Positions 1,787-39,054 of a stretch of DNA of 39,054 nt are shown here, piece after piece. Within the stretch, counting starts at the first letter, position 1; each line of letters begins with the position of its first letter. Under the pieces are notes generated by a model. The model did not search any database and was not told the DNA's origin. It saw nothing but the letters and a program-made list of their open reading frames with translations. Made by a program: the position numbers and the translations under genes. Source of the DNA: a virus (Duplodnaviria > Heunggongvirae > Uroviricota > Caudoviricetes); the IMG/VR virus record IMGVR_UViG_2874945390_000007; one strand, written 5' to 3'.

Positions 1787-2224
1787 TCAGCCAACAAATT
1801 TAGCAACAAATACAGCAACCGCCGCTGTGAAAATGGTTGTGCACACTGGCACAATAATGCCACTCCAACGCCACTTCGTATTATCATCAACCTTGTCAAA
1901 CCGCCGATTCATCTCATCCATAATCTTGTCAAAGCGTTTATCCATCGCTTCGGTAAGCTCACCCTTCAGGCTGTTAATGTCTGATTTGAGCTGCTCTTTC
2001 AGGTTAGCTGTATCAGATTTAAGCTCACCTTTCAGATTCGCAATATCGCATTCAAGATCACCTTTCAGATGTGCTATGTCTGCTTTGAGTTCACCTTTCA
2101 CCTCACCAACATCGGCTTTAGTTGAGAGGTTTGTAGTGCGTTCAGCAAGCGTCGCAAGGTCGTTTCTTGTTAGCGATAAATCACCTTCGAGCCGCTCAAT
2201 TCGCCTTTCAAGTTTATCTGACAT
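1787..2224 (-). CDS. tail-anchored coiled-coil protein with 11-residue repeats and C-terminal transmembrane helix (phage accessory/moron gene)
   Basis: ORF 1787..2341; preferred start ATG at 2224 (MSDKLERRIERLEGDL...) preceded by GGAGG; repeats ...DIAHLKGDLEC DIANLKGELKS DTANLKEQLKS DINSLKGELTE...; hydrophobic C-terminus IIVPVCTTIFTAAVAVFVAKFVG. Confidence 0.6.
   Translation of the reverse strand: MSDKLERRIERLEGDLSLTRNDLATLAERTTNLSTKADVGEVKGELKADIAHLKGDLECDIANLKGELKSDTANLKEQLKSDINSLKGELTEAMDKRFDKIMDEMNRRFDKVDDNTKWRWSGIIVPVCTTIFTAAVAVFVAKFVG
1951..2112. repeat. about five imperfect 33-bp tandem repeats inside the coiled-coil gene
   Basis: Units such as ctgatttgagctgctctttcaggttagctgtat / cagatttaagctcacctttcagattcgcaatat / cgcattcaagatcacctttcagatgtgctatgt / ctgctttgagttcacctttcacctcaccaacat in head-to-tail array; period 33 bp = 11 codons. 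Confidence 0.8.
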
Positions 2225-2324
2225 TCCGCCTCCACTACTGCCGCCATCGCCACCATGATAAAGCACATCACGCTCAGAATGCGACACACTACCTGCTGAA
2301 TTACCGAAAAGATTTCTTGCTACA

Positions 2325-2825
2325 TTACCCATTATCACCATCCTGCGCTTTGTCTTTCTCCAACCACTTCAGCACCGCAGACGTACGATAAAGGCTCAGG
2401 TAACCACAATTCAGGCAATGCAGCGTGTAATAAGTTTTGCGCATATCAGGTATGCTCTTAACATCACCCAAAAAAGCATAAGATACATAATGCTTTATGT
2501 TCTCTTTAATTAACTCACTCTGTTCCTCCAGGGGTAGATTGTTAAAATTTTCTGGTTTCTTATTTTTATCCCAGCAAAGATCCATACTTTCTGGAACAGA
2601 TAATCGCGACGATCCACATGAAGGGCAGACACTGGAGACCCCCTTCTCAGACAAGAAACGGAAGAAGATTTCTGGCGTAATCTCCATCAGCCGCTCTTTA
2701 TGTTTTTTGACACGACTCATCGACTTCTTATTGATTTCATCAGCTTCTTCTTTGCATTTATCTTCTATATATTTCGATAGTAAATAGTCATATAACTCTT
2801 TTTTTGTAGGTTTTTTTATTTCCAT
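2325..2825 (-). CDS. hypothetical zinc-ribbon protein (two CxxC pairs), AT-rich cargo gene downstream of int
   Basis: 166-aa ORF MEIKKPTKKELYDYLLSKY... with CPSCG and CLNCG motifs; visibly AT-rich codon usage; start lies 3 nt after the int stop, same strand. Confidence 0.55.
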   Translation of the reverse strand: MEIKKPTKKELYDYLLSKYIEDKCKEEADEINKKSMSRVKKHKERLMEITPEIFFRFLSEKGVSSVCPSCGSSRLSVPESMDLCWDKNKKPENFNNLPLEEQSELIKENIKHYVSYAFLGDVKSIPDMRKTYYTLHCLNCGYLSLYRTSAVLKWLEKDKAQDGDNG

Positions 2826-2827
2826 AG

Positions 2828-3805
2828 TTACATTCCTCCCAAGGGATTAAACCTCACCGCATCCTGCAAGTAATCCGGCGCAAGATGGGCATAAATCATC
2901 GTTGTCTGAATCTTTGCGTGCCCCAGAATTTTCTGGAGCGTCAGAATATTGCCGCCGTTCATCATGAAATGACTGGCGAAGGTGTGGCGCAGCGCATGAA
3001 CAGCCTGGCCGTCAGGAACATCAGGTGCGACCGTTTTGATGACATCGCGAACCAATGAATAATCCAGCGTCGGAAACACCAGTTTCCCGCCCCGTTTTTT
3101 GATCTTTTCAAACAGGCTTTCAGAAATAGGAACGGTACGGTTTTTGCTGTTCTTCGTTTTTGAAAAAGTGATTCGACAATGAAGAACACGGCGCTGCTCC
3201 AGTGCCGCTACCTCGCCCCATCGCGCCCCGGTCGACAGAAGGATTTCGACGGCCAGCCGTTCATCGGGATTTTCAGCCAGTGCATCCAGCAACTGAACAC
3301 ATTCAGACTTACTCAGATATCCCATTTCACGCTCGTTAACCTTCATTCCTTTAAGGCCTTGAACGGGGTTATCGTTAAGAAAATGGCCGGATGAGATGAG
3401 TGCGGTAAACATCGCGCTTAACGCCCCAATCTCTCGATTTATGGTGCTGGGCTGTATCCCCTGCTCTATCCTGGACACACGTAGCTCGGTGAGCATCGTT
3501 GTATTAAGTTTATGCACGCACGGGTCATCCATTGCCTCACTCAAGCGCAGCAATTTAAGGCGCGTGTTATGCCCTGACTTCATTAGCTGGCCGTGGTATT
3601 TCCACCACAAGTCAATAAGCACTGACAGCGGACGGCGATCAATGGAGTTTCCTTTCCACTCATTGTTATGCTGTTGCGCCAGCACCCACCGCTCATATAA
3701 AACTGCATCCGATTTCGTTTTAAATTTTTTGCGAATGCGTTTGCCTTTACGCCCCTCAGGACGCATGTCAAGAAGATACCCTCCCGGAATTGATTTTATG
3801 CTCAT
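2828..3805 (-). CDS. int: P2-type tyrosine integrase
   Basis: ORF 2828..3955; start preferred at ATG 3805 (MSIKSIPGGYLLDMRPEGRKGKRIRKKF...) matching P2 Int N-terminus; conserved ...LSTGARWGEVA..., ...HALRHTFASHFMMNGGNILTLQKILGH...IYAH... catalytic region. Confidence 0.92.
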   Translation of the reverse strand: MSIKSIPGGYLLDMRPEGRKGKRIRKKFKTKSDAVLYERWVLAQQHNNEWKGNSIDRRPLSVLIDLWWKYHGQLMKSGHNTRLKLLRLSEAMDDPCVHKLNTTMLTELRVSRIEQGIQPSTINREIGALSAMFTALISSGHFLNDNPVQGLKGMKVNEREMGYLSKSECVQLLDALAENPDERLAVEILLSTGARWGEVAALEQRRVLHCRITFSKTKNSKNRTVPISESLFEKIKKRGGKLVFPTLDYSLVRDVIKTVAPDVPDGQAVHALRHTFASHFMMNGGNILTLQKILGHAKIQTTMIYAHLAPDYLQDAVRFNPLGGM

Positions 3806-3854: not shown

Positions 3855-4166
3855 TTAGCCGGGCTGTGTGCCAGTCTTGCGGGATTTTTGAGAAGACGAT
3901 GTGTTTTCTGGCCCATCAGGGGAGAGAGAAGGACTGATCTGCCCAGCAGCCTCATTTGTTTCGTTACTCATCAACCACGTAGTGTATTTTTTAAATTCCG
4001 GGTGCATTGTGATTTTCAGTAAAACCTCCGTTCCCACACCTCGAATACCAGTCTCGTATTGCTTAACCGTACCAACCGCAATACCTATTGAATCCGCGAA
4101 CTTTGCCTGACTAAGCCCCTCAGATTCTCGAATTGCTTTTAGCTTCTTTGATATCTCTATTGACAT
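3855..4166 (-). CDS. C: immunity repressor, P2 C-like
   Basis: ORF 3855..4268; start preferred at ATG 4166 (MSIEISKKLKAIRESEGLSQAKFADSIGIAVGTVKQYETG...) giving about 103 aa with N-terminal HTH and ...FKKYTTWLMSNE...GQISP... resembling P2 C; upstream of int on same strand. Confidence 0.8.
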   Translation of the reverse strand: MSIEISKKLKAIRESEGLSQAKFADSIGIAVGTVKQYETGIRGVGTEVLLKITMHPEFKKYTTWLMSNETNEAAGQISPSLSPDGPENTSSSQKSRKTGTQPG

Positions 4167-4554: not shown

Positions 4555-4893
4555 ATGCTGAAGCAACGCCGTAATTTTTGTACCGGAACAGAACGCCACG
4601 CTAACCGTTTCACTACCAGTGCATCACGCAGCAACATCCGCTACAGCCTGAGTGATACACACGCAACGCCGGATGGCTACCCAGTAAAACAAATCGGCGA
4701 GCACGCCTGGCTGATTGAGAAAGCTGGAATCGTGATCCACAAATGCCCACGCAATCCGTTTACCGGAAACCGCATTTTTGCACTGAGCTGTGGCGACAAT
4801 CAGTTCGGGCAGGATTTCACATTATACGAAGCACTTCGCACGGTTGATCGTCTGCTTCGCGGGCAAAGTTTTATTAAACAGGCTGATTTATAA
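4555..4893 (+). CDS. hypothetical early protein
   Basis: 112-aa ORF in early operon; start uncertain. Confidence 0.4.
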   Translation: MLKQRRNFCTGTERHANRFTTSASRSNIRYSLSDTHATPDGYPVKQIGEHAWLIEKAGIVIHKCPRNPFTGNRIFALSCGDNQFGQDFTLYEALRTVDRLLRGQSFIKQADL

Positions 4894-4903
4894 CAGGTGC
4901 TTT

Positions 4904-5191
4904 ATGACCAAAGACAATGCACAAGGTGTATTTATCCGTTTTATTGATTTTCGCGGTGAACTGTTATTACGTGCATCCGCTATTGACGGAGTGACTCCGG
5001 CGGGTAAAAACGGAGCCGACGAAGCCACTTACGTTTATCTGAACGGCACGCGACTGCTTGTGGAACTTCCGTACCAGACCGTACGAGAAATCATCAGCGA
5101 AGATGAAAAGGCACGCCAGGTTAATGGCGATGAACCCTATATCGAAATTATTTGTATGGATTCAGAAGCTGAAATACAGAAAGCAGATTAA
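4904..5191 (+). CDS. hypothetical early protein
   Basis: ORF 4790..5191; internal ATG at 4904 (MTKDNAQGVFIRFIDFRGELLL...) preferred because upstream part overlaps preceding gene. Confidence 0.45.
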   Translation: MTKDNAQGVFIRFIDFRGELLLRASAIDGVTPAGKNGADEATYVYLNGTRLLVELPYQTVREIISEDEKARQVNGDEPYIEIICMDSEAEIQKAD

Positions 5192-35224: not shown

Positions 35225-35381
35225 AGCTTCAACCCCTTGTATCCGTTAAATGATTCGGCAACAATCATCACCCACCACGCGCGTAATCTCACCCCTGCGC
35301 CATTCTCCCGCCACGGCGACAACAAAAAGCAGTAACCCCCTCCGCACGCACATGCGACCATGCCACACAGGGAGGGAGCAG

Positions 35382-36491
35382 ATGACCGACACCACCATGC
35401 AATTGCTCAGTCAGGGCACAGACCCCGTGAAAATGCCGGATTTTGATATTCTCGCGGAGGGTAAAACGCTGTCAGGCGTGGCAGAGCGCCTGATGAGCCT
35501 GTCACTGACCGACAACCGGGGATTTGAGGCGGACCAGCTCACCATCACGCTGGATGATGCGGATGGTCAGTTGCAGCTACCGCCACGGGGCGCGCGCCTG
35601 ACGGTTCTCATTGGCTGGAAGGGAGAACCGCTGACAGAAAAAGGCACTTACATTGTTGATGAAATCGCTCACGAAGGACCGCCGGACAGGCTGACTGTTT
35701 CAGCCAGAAGCGCAGATTTTCGGGCTGAATTTAACGTTAAACGTGAGGTGTCCTGGCATGATGTGACCGTTGAGCGTGTGGTATCCGCCATCGCTCATCG
35801 GTATGGTCTGAAACCGCAAATCAGCGAAATGCTGATGGATATCGAAATCGACCACGCCGACCAGACCGAAGAAAGCGACATGTCCTTCCTTACGCGCATG
35901 GCGGAAATGCTGGGCGCAATCACCACGGTAAAAAGCGGTAATCTGTTATTCATCATGCCCGGTGGTGGCGTGAACGCACAGGGCCAGCCGTTGCCCTCGT
36001 TCGCCATCACACGCAGCAGCGGCGATCGCCATCAGTTCCGCATTGCTGACCGCGAAGCGTATACGGGGGTACGCGCTTACTGGCTTGATCTTAATTACGG
36101 GAAAAAGAAAAAAGTCAGCGTGAAACGCCGCAAACCGTCAAAACCAAAAAAGGAGAAAAGCAGCAGCCGGGAAGGCGACTATATGGAAGGTGCGGAAGGC
36201 AACGTGTTTGTGTTACGCAAAACTTATCAGAACGAGCAGGCAGCAAGACGTGCAGCGGCGGCAAAGTGGCAGCAGCTACAACGCGGAGCCGCATCATTCT
36301 CCATCACACTGGCGCATGGACGTGCAGAACTCTACCCCGAAATGCATGGCACGGTAACAGGATTTAAAAGCGAGATTGATAATCAGGACTGGATTATTGC
36401 AAAAGCCGAGCACACCATTGATAACAGCGGCTTTACCACGCAGCTTGAGCTTGAGGCAAAAATCCCGGAATGGATAGCAGAAACAGAGTGA
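35382..36491 (+). CDS. D: tail protein D
   Basis: ORF 35250..36491; ATG 35382 (MTDTTMQLLSQGTDPVKMPDFDILAEGKTLSG...) preceded by GGGAGGGAG; about 369 aa. Confidence 0.85.
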   Translation: MTDTTMQLLSQGTDPVKMPDFDILAEGKTLSGVAERLMSLSLTDNRGFEADQLTITLDDADGQLQLPPRGARLTVLIGWKGEPLTEKGTYIVDEIAHEGPPDRLTVSARSADFRAEFNVKREVSWHDVTVERVVSAIAHRYGLKPQISEMLMDIEIDHADQTEESDMSFLTRMAEMLGAITTVKSGNLLFIMPGGGVNAQGQPLPSFAITRSSGDRHQFRIADREAYTGVRAYWLDLNYGKKKKVSVKRRKPSKPKKEKSSSREGDYMEGAEGNVFVLRKTYQNEQAARRAAAAKWQQLQRGAASFSITLAHGRAELYPEMHGTVTGFKSEIDNQDWIIAKAEHTIDNSGFTTQLELEAKIPEWIAETE

Positions 36492-36716: not shown

Positions 36717-38219
36717 ATGAACAAAAAGCTGTATTTATTCCCAGACTCAAACATTTTTCTACAATGCAAGGACTTGACGCAGGTAAATTTTTCCGAGATT
36801 ACTGCTTGTGATGAAGTATGTATCATTATTACAAGGCCCATTCAGCAAGAGATTGACCGCCAGAAAGGGCAAGGTAATTCCCGCCTATCCAAAAAAGCAA
36901 GGAAGGCTGCTAGCCTATTTAATCAAGTAGTTGATTCAACTGACATGACTCTTGTTATTCGTGAACGCTCGCCGCGAGTTTTTCTTACCATGGATCTAAG
37001 CCTGAAACCATGTGAACAGTTATCTGAACAATTGGATTATCAGGAGGCCGACGATCGTTTTGTTGGTATTGCGGCAGGGTATTGCGCTGACGATCCAGAT
37101 TCGGAGGTGGCAATCATTACCAATGATAGCGGTCCACGTTTTTCAGCAATAAAACATAATATAATCTGCTATAAAGTGCCTTCTTCATGGTTGCTTCCTG
37201 CTGAGCCAGATGAAAAGGATAAACAAATTAAATTGCTGGAAGCTAAGCTGAAGCAATTCACTCAGTCTATGCCCGATTTCAGCATTAAAGTAGCCGATGA
37301 CGAGCAATTAAATATTGTACTTCCTTATTATACAGCTTTATCTGAATATGAAGTTGATAATTTGCTTTGTCAACTAACGGATGCATTCCCATTGGTTACA
37401 AACTTTGACAATGAACAAACTACCCCACAATCACTAGAAAAAATCATCAAGTCATTTAGTCAACAGGAGTATTTCCCTGTATCAGCAGATGATATTTCTC
37501 TTTATAAAGAAAAACATTATCCACTTTGGAAAAAGCAGTGTGAAGAAATACTGAAAAACTGTCATACTCATATTAATCCGAAGGCAATAAATTACCCGCT
37601 GTCGTTTTTATTACAAAACACAGGTTATACTATCGCTGAACGTGCTGTGGTAACATTTACAGCAAAAGGAGATTTTCGTCTGTGTGGATTTAATTGGGAG
37701 ATAATGGAAGAGCTGACTGAAAGCAAAAGGATTGACCTACCTTCAGCCCCTACCGCCCCCAAAGGAAAATGGCGTAGTGTATGTGGCGTAACAGAAAGAA
37801 TGCCTTACGCTGGGGGAGCTTTGGAAACACCGCTATCCAGTATAATTTCAAAAGAAATTGGTCCTTTGTTATCTCTTACTCCAACAGAAAGGGATAAAAA
37901 CGATTTTTATTATAAAGAAAAGAGAAATGAGCCAGTTCAAGTTGTATCGCTGGAATGCGAAGAGTGGCGTCATCAAGTCAAAGAAGAAATATTCCCGTTG
38001 TTCGTATATACAGCCAACAAACCAAAGAAAGTGAATGGTGCAATTGAGGTGAGAGTTGATGCAAATAACCTTACCAATCCGGTCATTAAAACATTTAAAT
38101 TAAAAATAACTATAGAAGAACATAGTGCATTTTCAACCATAACAGAAATGGTGCAGACATACATTCAAGAGCAGAAGAAAAGACAGAAAAGTTCTATTAG
38201 CGCACAAATCAAAACATGA
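36717..38219 (+). CDS. PIN-like nuclease domain protein (N-terminal PIN fold, about 350-aa C-terminal region of unknown function); candidate defence gene
   Basis: 500-aa ORF; N-terminus MNKKLYLFPDSNIFLQ... (first acidic residue), ...QQEIDRQ..., ...DDRFVGIAAGY..., ...VAIITNDSGP... fit the four-acidic-residue PIN pattern; visibly AT-rich relative to flanking D and ogr; AT-rich promoter-like upstream region with TTGATA hexamers. Confidence 0.6.
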   Translation: MNKKLYLFPDSNIFLQCKDLTQVNFSEITACDEVCIIITRPIQQEIDRQKGQGNSRLSKKARKAASLFNQVVDSTDMTLVIRERSPRVFLTMDLSLKPCEQLSEQLDYQEADDRFVGIAAGYCADDPDSEVAIITNDSGPRFSAIKHNIICYKVPSSWLLPAEPDEKDKQIKLLEAKLKQFTQSMPDFSIKVADDEQLNIVLPYYTALSEYEVDNLLCQLTDAFPLVTNFDNEQTTPQSLEKIIKSFSQQEYFPVSADDISLYKEKHYPLWKKQCEEILKNCHTHINPKAINYPLSFLLQNTGYTIAERAVVTFTAKGDFRLCGFNWEIMEELTESKRIDLPSAPTAPKGKWRSVCGVTERMPYAGGALETPLSSIISKEIGPLLSLTPTERDKNDFYYKEKRNEPVQVVSLECEEWRHQVKEEIFPLFVYTANKPKKVNGAIEVRVDANNLTNPVIKTFKLKITIEEHSAFSTITEMVQTYIQEQKKRQKSSISAQIKT

Positions 38220-38462: not shown

Positions 38463-38723
38463 ATGTTCCGTTGTCCGCTTTGTGGCGCATCTGCCCGTAT
38501 CCGCACCAGTCGTCCGGAAAATGATTCAAACACCGTGCGGCAAAAGTATTACCAGTGTAACAATCTGGAATGCGGCGTATGCTTCTCAACACTGGAAGCT
38601 TTCCATAAATTCACATCAAAACACGCCTCCGGCGTTCACTCTTCAGAAGATATCCCGTGGCATGATCTGCCAGCTTCACACAGGGGAAACAATCAGATGA
38701 GCTTGCCTTTACCTCAGAATTAA
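38463..38723 (+). CDS. ogr: late gene transcriptional activator, Ogr/Delta zinc-finger family
   Basis: 86-aa ORF MFRCPLCGASARIRTSRPENDSNTVRQKYYQCNNLECGVCFSTLEAFHKF... with CxxC...CxxxxC as in P2 Ogr. Confidence 0.9.
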   Translation: MFRCPLCGASARIRTSRPENDSNTVRQKYYQCNNLECGVCFSTLEAFHKFTSKHASGVHSSEDIPWHDLPASHRGNNQMSLPLPQN

Positions 38724-38783: not shown

Positions 38784-38996
38784 ATGGTCGGAGGGAATAC
38801 CCGAAGGCCAGATGTGGAAAGGCCCCGGAAAACATCTCTGTTTAACCGAGGCCCTAACCGCATTACCTTGACAAGTGAAAGGTTAGCGCCTCTCCGGAAA
38901 AGGAGCAAGTGCTATGTCGCAAAAATCGCTTACGACCATCACGTTCTGCGTGACGGCAATCCTCATCATCTGGATGTTGCACGGTTCGCTGTGTGA
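38784..38996 (+). CDS. possible Mok-like overlapping reading frame
   Basis: 70-aa ORF overlapping the hok-like start in another frame, same size class as R1 mok; support is positional only. Confidence 0.3.
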   Translation: MVGGNTRRPDVERPRKTSLFNRGPNRITLTSERLAPLRKRSKCYVAKIAYDHHVLRDGNPHHLDVARFAV

Positions 38997-39054
38997 AATA
39001 CGGATGAGCTTCTGGGGAGCGGAGTTTGCGGCGTTCTTACAGTGTAAGCAGTAA
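38914..39054 (+). CDS. Hok/Gef-family type I toxin (46 aa), not in ORF track
   Basis: ATG 38914 with AGGAG upstream; translation MSQKSLTTITFCVTAILIIWMLHGSLCEIRMSFWGAEFAAFLQCKQ has TM helix plus SLCEIR and AAFL motifs shared with Hok/HokA; stop codon is the last 3 nt of the window. Confidence 0.7.
   Translation: MSQKSLTTITFCVTAILIIWMLHGSLCEIRMSFWGAEFAAFLQCKQ

Follow-up and report, generated by a model that had tools for sequence, protein, structure and literature searches.

The 39,054-nt stretch of DNA analysed here (the window; IMG/VR record IMGVR_UViG_2874945390_000007, Caudoviricetes) holds a P2-like Escherichia coli prophage that carries, between its integrase gene (int) and its attachment site (att), two small overlapping genes that, by synteny across divergent loci, are a conserved unit mobile between prophages. 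The first encodes a stand-alone protein with two conserved CxxC knuckles (the zinc-ribbon protein) and the second a coiled coil ending in a single transmembrane (TM) helix (the stalk), which motif and profile comparisons assign to the DUF1640/CCDC90 (MCUR1)-type tail-anchored coiled coils. Among the functions that we weighed for the pair, an anti-phage role, by abortive infection or exclusion at the inner membrane face, ranks first; we regard it as plausible, if still short of probable. The features of the pair are as follows, in window positions.

2325–2825, minus strand: zinc-ribbon gene, 166 aa, a stand-alone family (PHROG 4293) without a Pfam family
2616–2627, minus strand: first CxxC, C67-P-S-C70, in invariant columns
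2406–2417, minus strand: second CxxC, C137-L-N-C140, in invariant columns and followed by the invariant G141
2325–2332, minus strand: 8-nt overlap ATGGGTAA, with the stalk start codon over the zinc-ribbon stop codon; predicted translational coupling
1787–2332, minus strand: stalk gene, long form, 181 aa, DUF1640/CCDC90-like, comprising N-terminal peptide, Gly linker, coiled coil, beta-layer, hendecad stalk and TM anchor
2255–2332, minus strand: variable N-terminal peptide, residues 1–26, disordered in the monomer model and co-varying with the zinc-ribbon allele
2225–2254, minus strand: Gly-rich linker GGDGGSSGGG, whose last codons GGA GGC GGA give a GGAGG Shine–Dalgarno sequence 4 nt before the ATG at 2224
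2222–2224, minus strand: internal start codon Met37, the start annotated in RefSeq; probable start of a 145-aa short isoform
2129–2221, minus strand: N-terminal coiled-coil segment, residues 38–68, SDKLERRIERLEGD..., with R44 and E49 invariant
2111–2128, minus strand: beta-layer motif L-S-T-K-A-D, residues 69–74, with K72 and D74 invariant; the model helix breaks there
1865–2110, minus strand: hendecad coiled-coil stalk, residues 75–156, with the 33-nt DNA repeat at 1996–2100 and a copy number that varies between alleles
1802–1858, minus strand: single C-terminal TM helix, residues 159–177, then a 4-residue tail; W154 just upstream is invariant

The pair is conserved and mobile

Twelve divergent loci were found to carry the pair, among them loci of E. 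coli, Salmonella, Klebsiella and Providencia and of several metagenomic enterobacterial contigs. In all 12 the zinc-ribbon gene comes first and the start of the stalk gene abuts its stop codon or overlaps it (by 4–11 nt in loci other than the window). Depending on the locus, the pair has one of three places in the prophage: the int–att interval, the stretch from the repressor region to int, or the interior of a tail/baseplate module. In Klebsiella it lies at an att beside an alanine racemase gene (dadX by neighbourhood). The sequence-only reading of the window had asked whether the two genes recur together elsewhere, and they do; the idea of two unrelated cargo genes was rejected on this synteny.

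Among 5,426 complete E. coli genomes, the stalk body was present in 39 (0.7%). Two clades of zinc-ribbon protein occur in E. coli, a long one in 23 genomes and a short one (129–133 aa) in 15, and each of these genes is found a single time per genome and in the same slot; together these make 38 of the 39 stalk genomes, if the carriers fall within the 39. What appeared to be a stalk gene with a different neighbour proved to be a stalk gene beside a divergent zinc-ribbon allele. The short-clade gene (for example at 4719–5117 of locus L002) lacks an annotation in the listed complete RefSeq genomes of E. coli with an allele of about 90% identity.

Judged by the ratio of non-synonymous to synonymous polymorphism (pN/pS), all segments are under purifying selection, with values of 0.05–0.24 for the zinc-ribbon gene, 0.09–0.41 for the stalk body and 0.04–0.10 for int. 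The notion that we are dealing with spurious or decaying open reading frames (ORFs), that is, a chance repeat and non-functional remnants beside att, would suit the AT-richness of the zinc-ribbon gene and its missing annotation in those RefSeq genomes. Conservation effectively refutes this notion, which we hold to be very improbable: pN/pS stays at 0.05–0.41 in all segments, the Cys, Trp and beta-layer residues are invariant across genera, the zinc-ribbon protein yields an AlphaFold2 model with a pLDDT of 82.8, and synteny is kept in the 12 loci.

Two of the pairs that sit between the repressor region and int (loci L012 and L023) have just upstream a gene for a Flk_N-like protein of about 200 aa with a C-terminal TM helix (L012 2285–2896; L023 411–1013); L023 also encodes a VasI-like protein, and these neighbourhoods form a cluster of tail-anchored cargo. 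One zinc-ribbon homologue (P0117, 147 aa; locus L024, 2537–2980) stands without a DUF1640 partner, about 1.1 kb from Csy1–Csy4 (type I-F) cas genes.

A stand-alone zinc-ribbon protein

The first description of the gene at 2325–2825 as AT-rich with two CxxC pairs was borne out. GC content is 0.37–0.41 across 2251–3000, against about 0.50 in int, and C67, C70, C137, C140, G141 and W154 are invariant in 24 homologues with identities down to about 20%. The AlphaFold2 model, made with 16 homologues, has a long N-terminal helix, a short helix (ITPEIFFRFLSEKG), a beta-sheet with the second CxxC knuckle between strands 131–137 and 143–147, and a C-terminal helix. On the strength of the two conserved knuckles we conclude that the product is a zinc ribbon, with metal binding predicted. 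Zn_ribbon_13 ('nucleic-acid-binding') gave sub-threshold matches in 14 of 24 family members.

The only family match of the protein was PHROG 4293, of 'unknown function'; scans of Pfam and NCBIfam returned no family, and a PDB sequence search no match. An exhaustive profile search of 1.84 billion representatives found 90 relatives, all stand-alone and 57–180 aa long, and a word-indexed search with a diverse profile (E ≤ 10) found 29; fusion to another domain that might hint at function was seen in neither set. All named family members are from Enterobacterales, a profile scan of genome contigs with a closer alignment gave 2 species representatives only, and tblastn found the protein in none of 50,697 deposited phage records.

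A tail-anchored DUF1640-type stalk

The stalk had been read from the sequence as a coiled coil of 11-residue repeats ending in a single TM helix, and the closer analysis agrees. Tandem Repeats Finder detects 3.2 copies of a repeat of 33-nt period at 1996–2100, an unbroken 11-residue register of eight repeats spans residues 69–156, and the periodicity of hydrophobic residues is strongest at 3.7, where its power is 95 compared with 2.5 at 3.5. The TM helix at 159–177 has a mean Kyte–Doolittle hydropathy of 2.43. In the AlphaFold2 monomer model, helices cover residues 38–68, 72–147 and 153–180; the Gly-rich residues 1–35 are disordered (pLDDT below 50), and the model contains no folded N-terminal head domain. 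Homologues differ in length in 11-residue steps (112/123/134/145/156 and 148/159/170/181/192), which indicates that even nearly identical alleles differ in hendecad copy number without a shift in the helical register. One homologue, from Providencia, lacks hendecads altogether, and another has six FATKADLQN nonads.

Since the protein has no signal peptide and its TM helix is followed by only four residues, the N-terminal part of about 158 residues is predicted to be cytoplasmic and the protein tail-anchored. A stalk facing the cytoplasm with a 4-residue periplasmic tail argues against a block of DNA injection from the periplasmic side, and a periplasmic exclusion protein was rejected on this topology.

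RefSeq annotates 1787–2224 (145 aa) as a 'DUF1640/CCDC90 family protein'. DUF1640 proteins have as their hallmark a motif that opens the stalk, [aliphatic]-A-T-K-[polar]-[DE] (Hartmann et al., PMC4786415). The window allele has this motif as L-S-T-K-A-D at residues 69–74, with Ser in place of Ala; T71 is nearly invariant, K72 and D74 are invariant, and the AlphaFold2 helix breaks at 69–71. The Pfam family PF07798 scored 24.5 bits against the window stalk (gathering score 33.5) and matched 17 of 22 aligned stalk relatives at E ≤ 0.01 (best 6.4e-12). A PDB search with the single stalk sequence returned only noise; the stalk-family profile matched 6h9l, a three-chain entry, with E 9.5e-5, together with several engineered beta-layer coiled coils. 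We conclude from motif and profile that the stalk is a DUF1640/CCDC90 (MCUR1)-type tail-anchored coiled coil, and that it is probably trimeric.

With the DUF1640/CCDC90 proteins (PF07798; MCUR1, CCDC90B, 6h9l) it shares the beta-layer motif [aliphatic]-A/S-T-K-x-[DE] that opens the stalk, the helix break at that motif, the single C-terminal TM anchor and sequence similarity at profile level. The architecture of MCUR1 and CCDC90B reportedly includes a folded N-terminal head domain, said to have been described by Adlakha and colleagues in 2019. The proteins considered here differ in having a disordered peptide of about 26 residues and a Gly linker in place of the folded head, a hendecad-built stalk of variable copy number, and an obligatory zinc-ribbon partner encoded with them in prophages.

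Other matches of the stalk were faint. Across the 50,697 phage records, tblastn gave only weak DUF1640 matches, to Liberibacter SC1/SC2, APSE and one Klebsiella prophage-like record. The C-terminal 70 residues matched the holin family phrog_689 (E 0.004) and the XhlA-type family phrog_1193 (E 0.023), both at noise level, and Pfam XhlA matched one of 22 stalk members (E 0.0055). XhlA-type lysis proteins likewise have a coiled coil followed by a C-terminal TM helix, at a PHROG and Pfam similarity that does not rise above noise. Unlike holin and XhlA genes, the stalk gene stands beside int and att, outside the lysis cassette. A virion or lysis gene was rejected on this position and on lack of homology.

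Two probable start codons

The gene reported earlier at 1787–2224 exists, but it most likely starts at 2332, and 2224 is probably not its sole start. The frame is open from the ATG at 2224 back to an ATG at 2332, which adds MGNVARNLFGNSAGSVSHSERDVLYH and the linker GGDGGSSGGG. It is likewise open in all 12 divergent loci, always with the same layout of about 21–28 variable residues, a Gly-rich linker and then Met (Val, encoded by GTG, in L021). In the short-zinc-ribbon clade, a GGGAGG(G/A) Shine–Dalgarno sequence lies 7 nt before the upstream start. Two related alleles differ by an in-frame 18-nt indel, and pN/pS of the extension among close alleles is 0.08–0.31. The open frame, in-frame indel, Shine–Dalgarno sequence and low pN/pS support translation of the N-terminal extension. 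Other gene callers already use the long start, as does NCBI for some alleles; RefSeq usually takes the internal ATG, which makes the gene 108 nt shorter than it would be from the probable start.

The internal start also appears to be kept. In 11 loci the linker is followed by an ATG codon and in the remaining one (L021) by GTG, and the only two GGA codons among the 18 Gly codons of the window stalk are codons 34 and 36, which create GGAGGCGGA-ATG. The conserved ATG or GTG and the preceding GGAGG suggest a shorter isoform that lacks the N-terminal peptide, and we think that the 181-aa and the 145-aa products are probably both made. In L021 (4443–4475) three tandem copies of GGAGGTGAT encode the Gly-rich linker and lie directly before the GTG codon; GGAGGTGAT is a perfect 9-nt complement of the 3′ end of 16S rRNA.

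In lambda, S105/S107 is a dual-start system that controls lysis timing. In-frame alternative starts would likewise give two membrane-protein isoforms here; the extension is 36 residues with a tether, against 2–3 residues in lambda, and the isoforms of the stalk are predicted ones.

Co-variation of the zinc-ribbon protein and the stalk N-terminus

We compared ten of the pairs by identity matrix and Spearman correlation. Zinc-ribbon identity correlated with that of the stalk N-terminal peptide (rho 0.58) and not with that of the stalk body (rho 0.06). The stalk bodies of the window and of L002 and L003 are 98–99% identical while their zinc-ribbon proteins are 31–36% identical; conversely, L003 and L008 share 70% identity in the zinc-ribbon protein and 49% in the stalk body. 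This pattern suggests that the zinc-ribbon gene and the N-terminal peptide are exchanged together, with the breakpoint in the conserved linker and the start of the coiled coil, and it fits a physical interface between zinc-ribbon protein and peptide.

Partner-specific co-variation is also what a toxin–antitoxin (TA)-like addiction module might show, with the stalk as toxin and the zinc-ribbon protein as antitoxin and perhaps autoregulator, so that the prophage would be stabilised and any anti-phage effect would be secondary. A small upstream gene overlapping the downstream one by 4–11 nt is the classic type II layout, the zinc-ribbon allele co-varies with its would-be contact region on the stalk, a second addiction-type gene, of the Hok/Gef family, lies at the other prophage end, and the last 70 residues of the stalk have the holin and XhlA similarities (E 0.004 and 0.023) given above. 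These scores are at noise level, however, searches of Pfam, NCBIfam and PADLOC gave no TA-family match, and nothing points to toxic DUF1640 stalks; eukaryotic relatives are described as scaffolds in a 2025 preprint (10.1101/2025.10.14.682030). Type II TA operons thus resemble the pair in their two small, overlapping and coupled genes (overlap of 8 nt here, 0–11 nt elsewhere) and in partner-specific co-variation; the pair differs in having neither TA-family homology nor any sign of toxicity or of a DNA-binding antitoxin. We consider an addiction module improbable.

Prophage ends and expected expression of the pair

The window opens with E. coli chromosomal DNA, in which btuE (1–551) and btuC (614–1594) lie on the minus strand; the alignment to the K-12 btuC–ihfA spacer is perfect to 1677 and then breaks. 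Strain RM8426 matches the window region 1600–2900 at 99.9% identity and has a P2-like prophage of about 35 kb there. In RM8426 the 25-bp sequence AAAGAAAAAAGGCCGCAGAGCGGCC (1653–1677) has a second copy directly beside ihfA at the other prophage end. This 25-bp repeat is the att core, and the window from 1678 rightwards is prophage DNA. The second copy beside ihfA and the end of K-12 identity at 1677 make the zinc-ribbon and stalk genes prophage cargo between int and att, so the original proposal of two extra cargo genes in that interval, co-oriented with int, stands; both ORFs are on the minus strand, like int and the C-type repressor. The surrounding features are as follows.

1653–1677, no strand: att core copy on the attL side, AAAGAAAAAAGGCCGCAGAGCGGCC, from the K-12 alignment, the second copy in RM8426 and a terminator scan
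1678–1786, no strand: non-coding phage DNA from the att core to the stalk stop codon, presumed attP arm; without an ORF and conserved among prophages at the site
2828–3805, minus strand: tyrosine integrase (int), with its stop codon 2 nt before the zinc-ribbon start
3855–4166, minus strand: helix-turn-helix (C-type) repressor, first gene of the repressor–int–zinc-ribbon–stalk string

In P2, attP abuts int, as the sequence-only reading had assumed. The 109 nt at 1678–1786 are A/C-rich with repeated ACACAAA-like motifs, and this segment is presumably the Int/IHF arm region of attP, here about 1.15 kb from int.

The gaps along the string are 49 nt between repressor and int and 2 nt between int and the zinc-ribbon gene, whose Shine–Dalgarno sequence GGAGGA lies inside the 3′ end of int; the zinc-ribbon and stalk genes overlap by 8 nt. 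Scanning for promoters gave no sigma-70-like site on the minus strand within int, the zinc-ribbon gene or the stalk gene, with overall counts at chance level. The terminator scan showed that the att core is, on the minus strand, the ihfA rho-independent terminator (stem 1663–1677), and this att-core/ihfA hairpin is the sole strong terminator downstream of the operon. The tight spacing and the absence of an internal terminator or promoter suggest that the pair is read from the lysogenic transcript, from which int is read in P2, and that its products are present in lysogens.

This position directly after int in the repressor–int string would also suit a regulator of the phage's own life cycle. 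The stalk would then tether a zinc-ribbon regulator at the membrane in the manner of an anti-sigma or sequestration switch, and release would tune integration and excision, induction or lysis timing. Zinc ribbons often bind nucleic acids, and the sub-threshold Zn_ribbon_13 matches (14 of 24 members) agree with this; dual-start genes are typical of lysis timing control. Against it, most P2-like prophages lack the module, the zinc-ribbon gene is missing from the 50,697 phage records, and in other prophages the pair takes unrelated positions, including a tail/baseplate module, as an accessory moron would and a core regulator would not. We give such a regulator only a small chance of being right.

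Expression in the lysogen would equally be expected of a lysogenic-conversion factor for host physiology, acting in membrane or stress homeostasis or in colonisation, like the tail-anchored proteins Flk or ElaB or the att-side ctx of phiCTX. Shiga toxin-producing E. coli (STEC) and other pathotypes are enriched among the matches, a Flk_N-like tail-anchored protein is encoded beside the pair in two loci, and mitochondrial DUF1640 relatives act as metabolic scaffolds according to the preprint cited above (10.1101/2025.10.14.682030). The pair has no similarity to any virulence or stress factor, however. Alleles of the zinc-ribbon gene and of the N-terminal peptide are replaced rapidly while the stalk body stays constant, a pattern more in keeping with an interface in conflict than with a housekeeping contact. 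A conversion factor seems to us distinctly doubtful.

A possible anti-phage module

The anti-phage role that we rank first would work as follows. The pair would be a mobile accessory module of Enterobacterales temperate phages, in the window ending the lysogenic repressor–int string. The stalk would sit with its C-terminal TM helix in the inner membrane and the remainder in the cytoplasm, its N-terminus forming a flexible Gly-rich tether with a short, fast-evolving peptide at the end. The zinc-ribbon protein, small, cytoplasmic and translated just upstream in coupling with the stalk gene, would dock on this peptide and thereby stay bound to the tip of the anchored stalk. A second stalk isoform, made from the internal Shine–Dalgarno sequence and ATG, would lack the docking peptide. 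In the lysogen, the two proteins would act as a sensor/effector pair that interferes with superinfecting phages, a functional analogue of lambda RexA/RexB.

We rank this role first on circumstantial grounds: the expected expression in lysogens, the defence-holding slot, the mobility among three classic moron positions and the cassette-like replacement of the putative sensor part. According to a 2026 survey (PMC13586616), 3% of the recognised defence systems of P2-like phages lie in the int–att interval, which it lists as a minor hotspot. Like other P2-like cargo (old, tin, the Z/fun hotspots, the int–att minor hotspot and phiCTX ctx beside att), the pair is non-essential cargo in a variable slot; it differs in not being among the recognised systems (PADLOC negative) and in occurring at other prophage positions too. 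In the PADLOC searches, five long-clade zinc-ribbon homologues, not the window protein, matched PDC-S64 (PDLC05059), an uncharacterised single-gene defence candidate, with 16–21 bits (E 3e-5 to 8e-4) and over almost the whole length of the homologue, aligned to positions 144–286 of 339. These matches and the cas neighbours of one zinc-ribbon homologue are weak hints at defence.

Lambda RexA/RexB, an abortive-infection pair co-transcribed with the repressor, resembles the present pair in combining a cytoplasmic and a membrane component in what appears to be a lysogenic operon, and serves as a working analogy only. No Rex-family match occurred among the Pfam, PHROG and NCBIfam matches, and no search gave sequence or fold similarity; RexB is a polytopic membrane protein, whereas the stalk is a tail-anchored coiled coil.

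Several points weigh against the anti-phage role or the steps it builds on. PADLOC-DB v2 contained no credible match for the window proteins, the stalk giving only compositional coiled-coil matches (LmuB, ZorA), and the PDC-S64 matches reach just 16–21 bits and lie in relatives. A single-pass tail anchor with a 4-residue periplasmic tail would offer no obvious pore, injection blocker or effector chemistry. Only 0.7% of complete E. coli genomes have the module, which is thus rare, and its co-transcription from the repressor promoter is an assumption. The co-variation may merely reflect adjacency on the DNA, with breakpoints in the conserved linker and coiled-coil sequence, and the window stalk scores below the Pfam gathering threshold and lacks the head domain reported for MCUR1/CCDC90B. 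Searches of Pfam, PHROG, NCBIfam and PDB found no convincing homology to a characterised defence, lysis, virion or housekeeping protein, so that the confident virion or housekeeping match that would have counted against the earlier proposal did not appear.

A more elaborate version of the anti-phage role sees in the pair an unrecognised class of prophage immunity, in which a trimeric MCUR1-like stalk, tail-anchored in the inner membrane, would present an exchangeable zinc-ribbon sensor on a flexible N-terminal tether, two in-frame isoforms, one having and one lacking the docking peptide, would set the activity, sensor and peptide would be swapped together, and hendecad number would tune the length of the stalk. 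We put this forward tentatively and think it unlikely in this full form. If the pair protects lysogens, it would represent a defence architecture without a relative among catalogued systems and would offer a first way into the function of bacterial DUF1640 proteins, which are the prokaryotic relatives of mitochondrial MCUR1/CCDC90B. The physiological role of DUF1640 proteins is called elusive in the 2025 preprint (10.1101/2025.10.14.682030). The exchangeable cassette of sensor and docking peptide and the apparent dual start are concrete features that are cheap to test.

Parts of the system are already catalogued: both protein families, DUF1640 with PHROG 9415 on the one hand and PHROG 4293 on the other, as of 'unknown function', and the int–att slot as a minor hotspot. 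Searches of the literature on DUF1640, on tail-anchored prophage anti-phage proteins and on PDC-S64 brought up no account of five features: the obligate pairing, the tethered N-terminal extension from the upstream start, the conserved internal start, the co-varying zinc-ribbon/peptide cassette and the variation in hendecad copy number. For annotation, the consequence is that the RefSeq start of the stalk gene is usually 108 nt too late and that the short zinc-ribbon allele is missed in the listed genomes.

Other cargo of the prophage

At 38915–39054 (plus strand), running off the end of the window, lies a gene for a Hok/Gef-family membrane toxin, between ogr and the other att copy; it is 141 nt long in RM8426. 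An Rfam scan of the window found no RNA family and hence no Sok-type RNA within it. The position of the Hok/Gef gene near the other att copy implies cargo on both sides of attP. A 500-aa ORF at 36717–38219 (plus strand), between late-control gene D (35250–36491) and ogr (38463–38723), is annotated in RM8426 as 'PIN domain-containing protein'; it marks a further cargo slot of the same prophage and may be a defence or nuclease gene.

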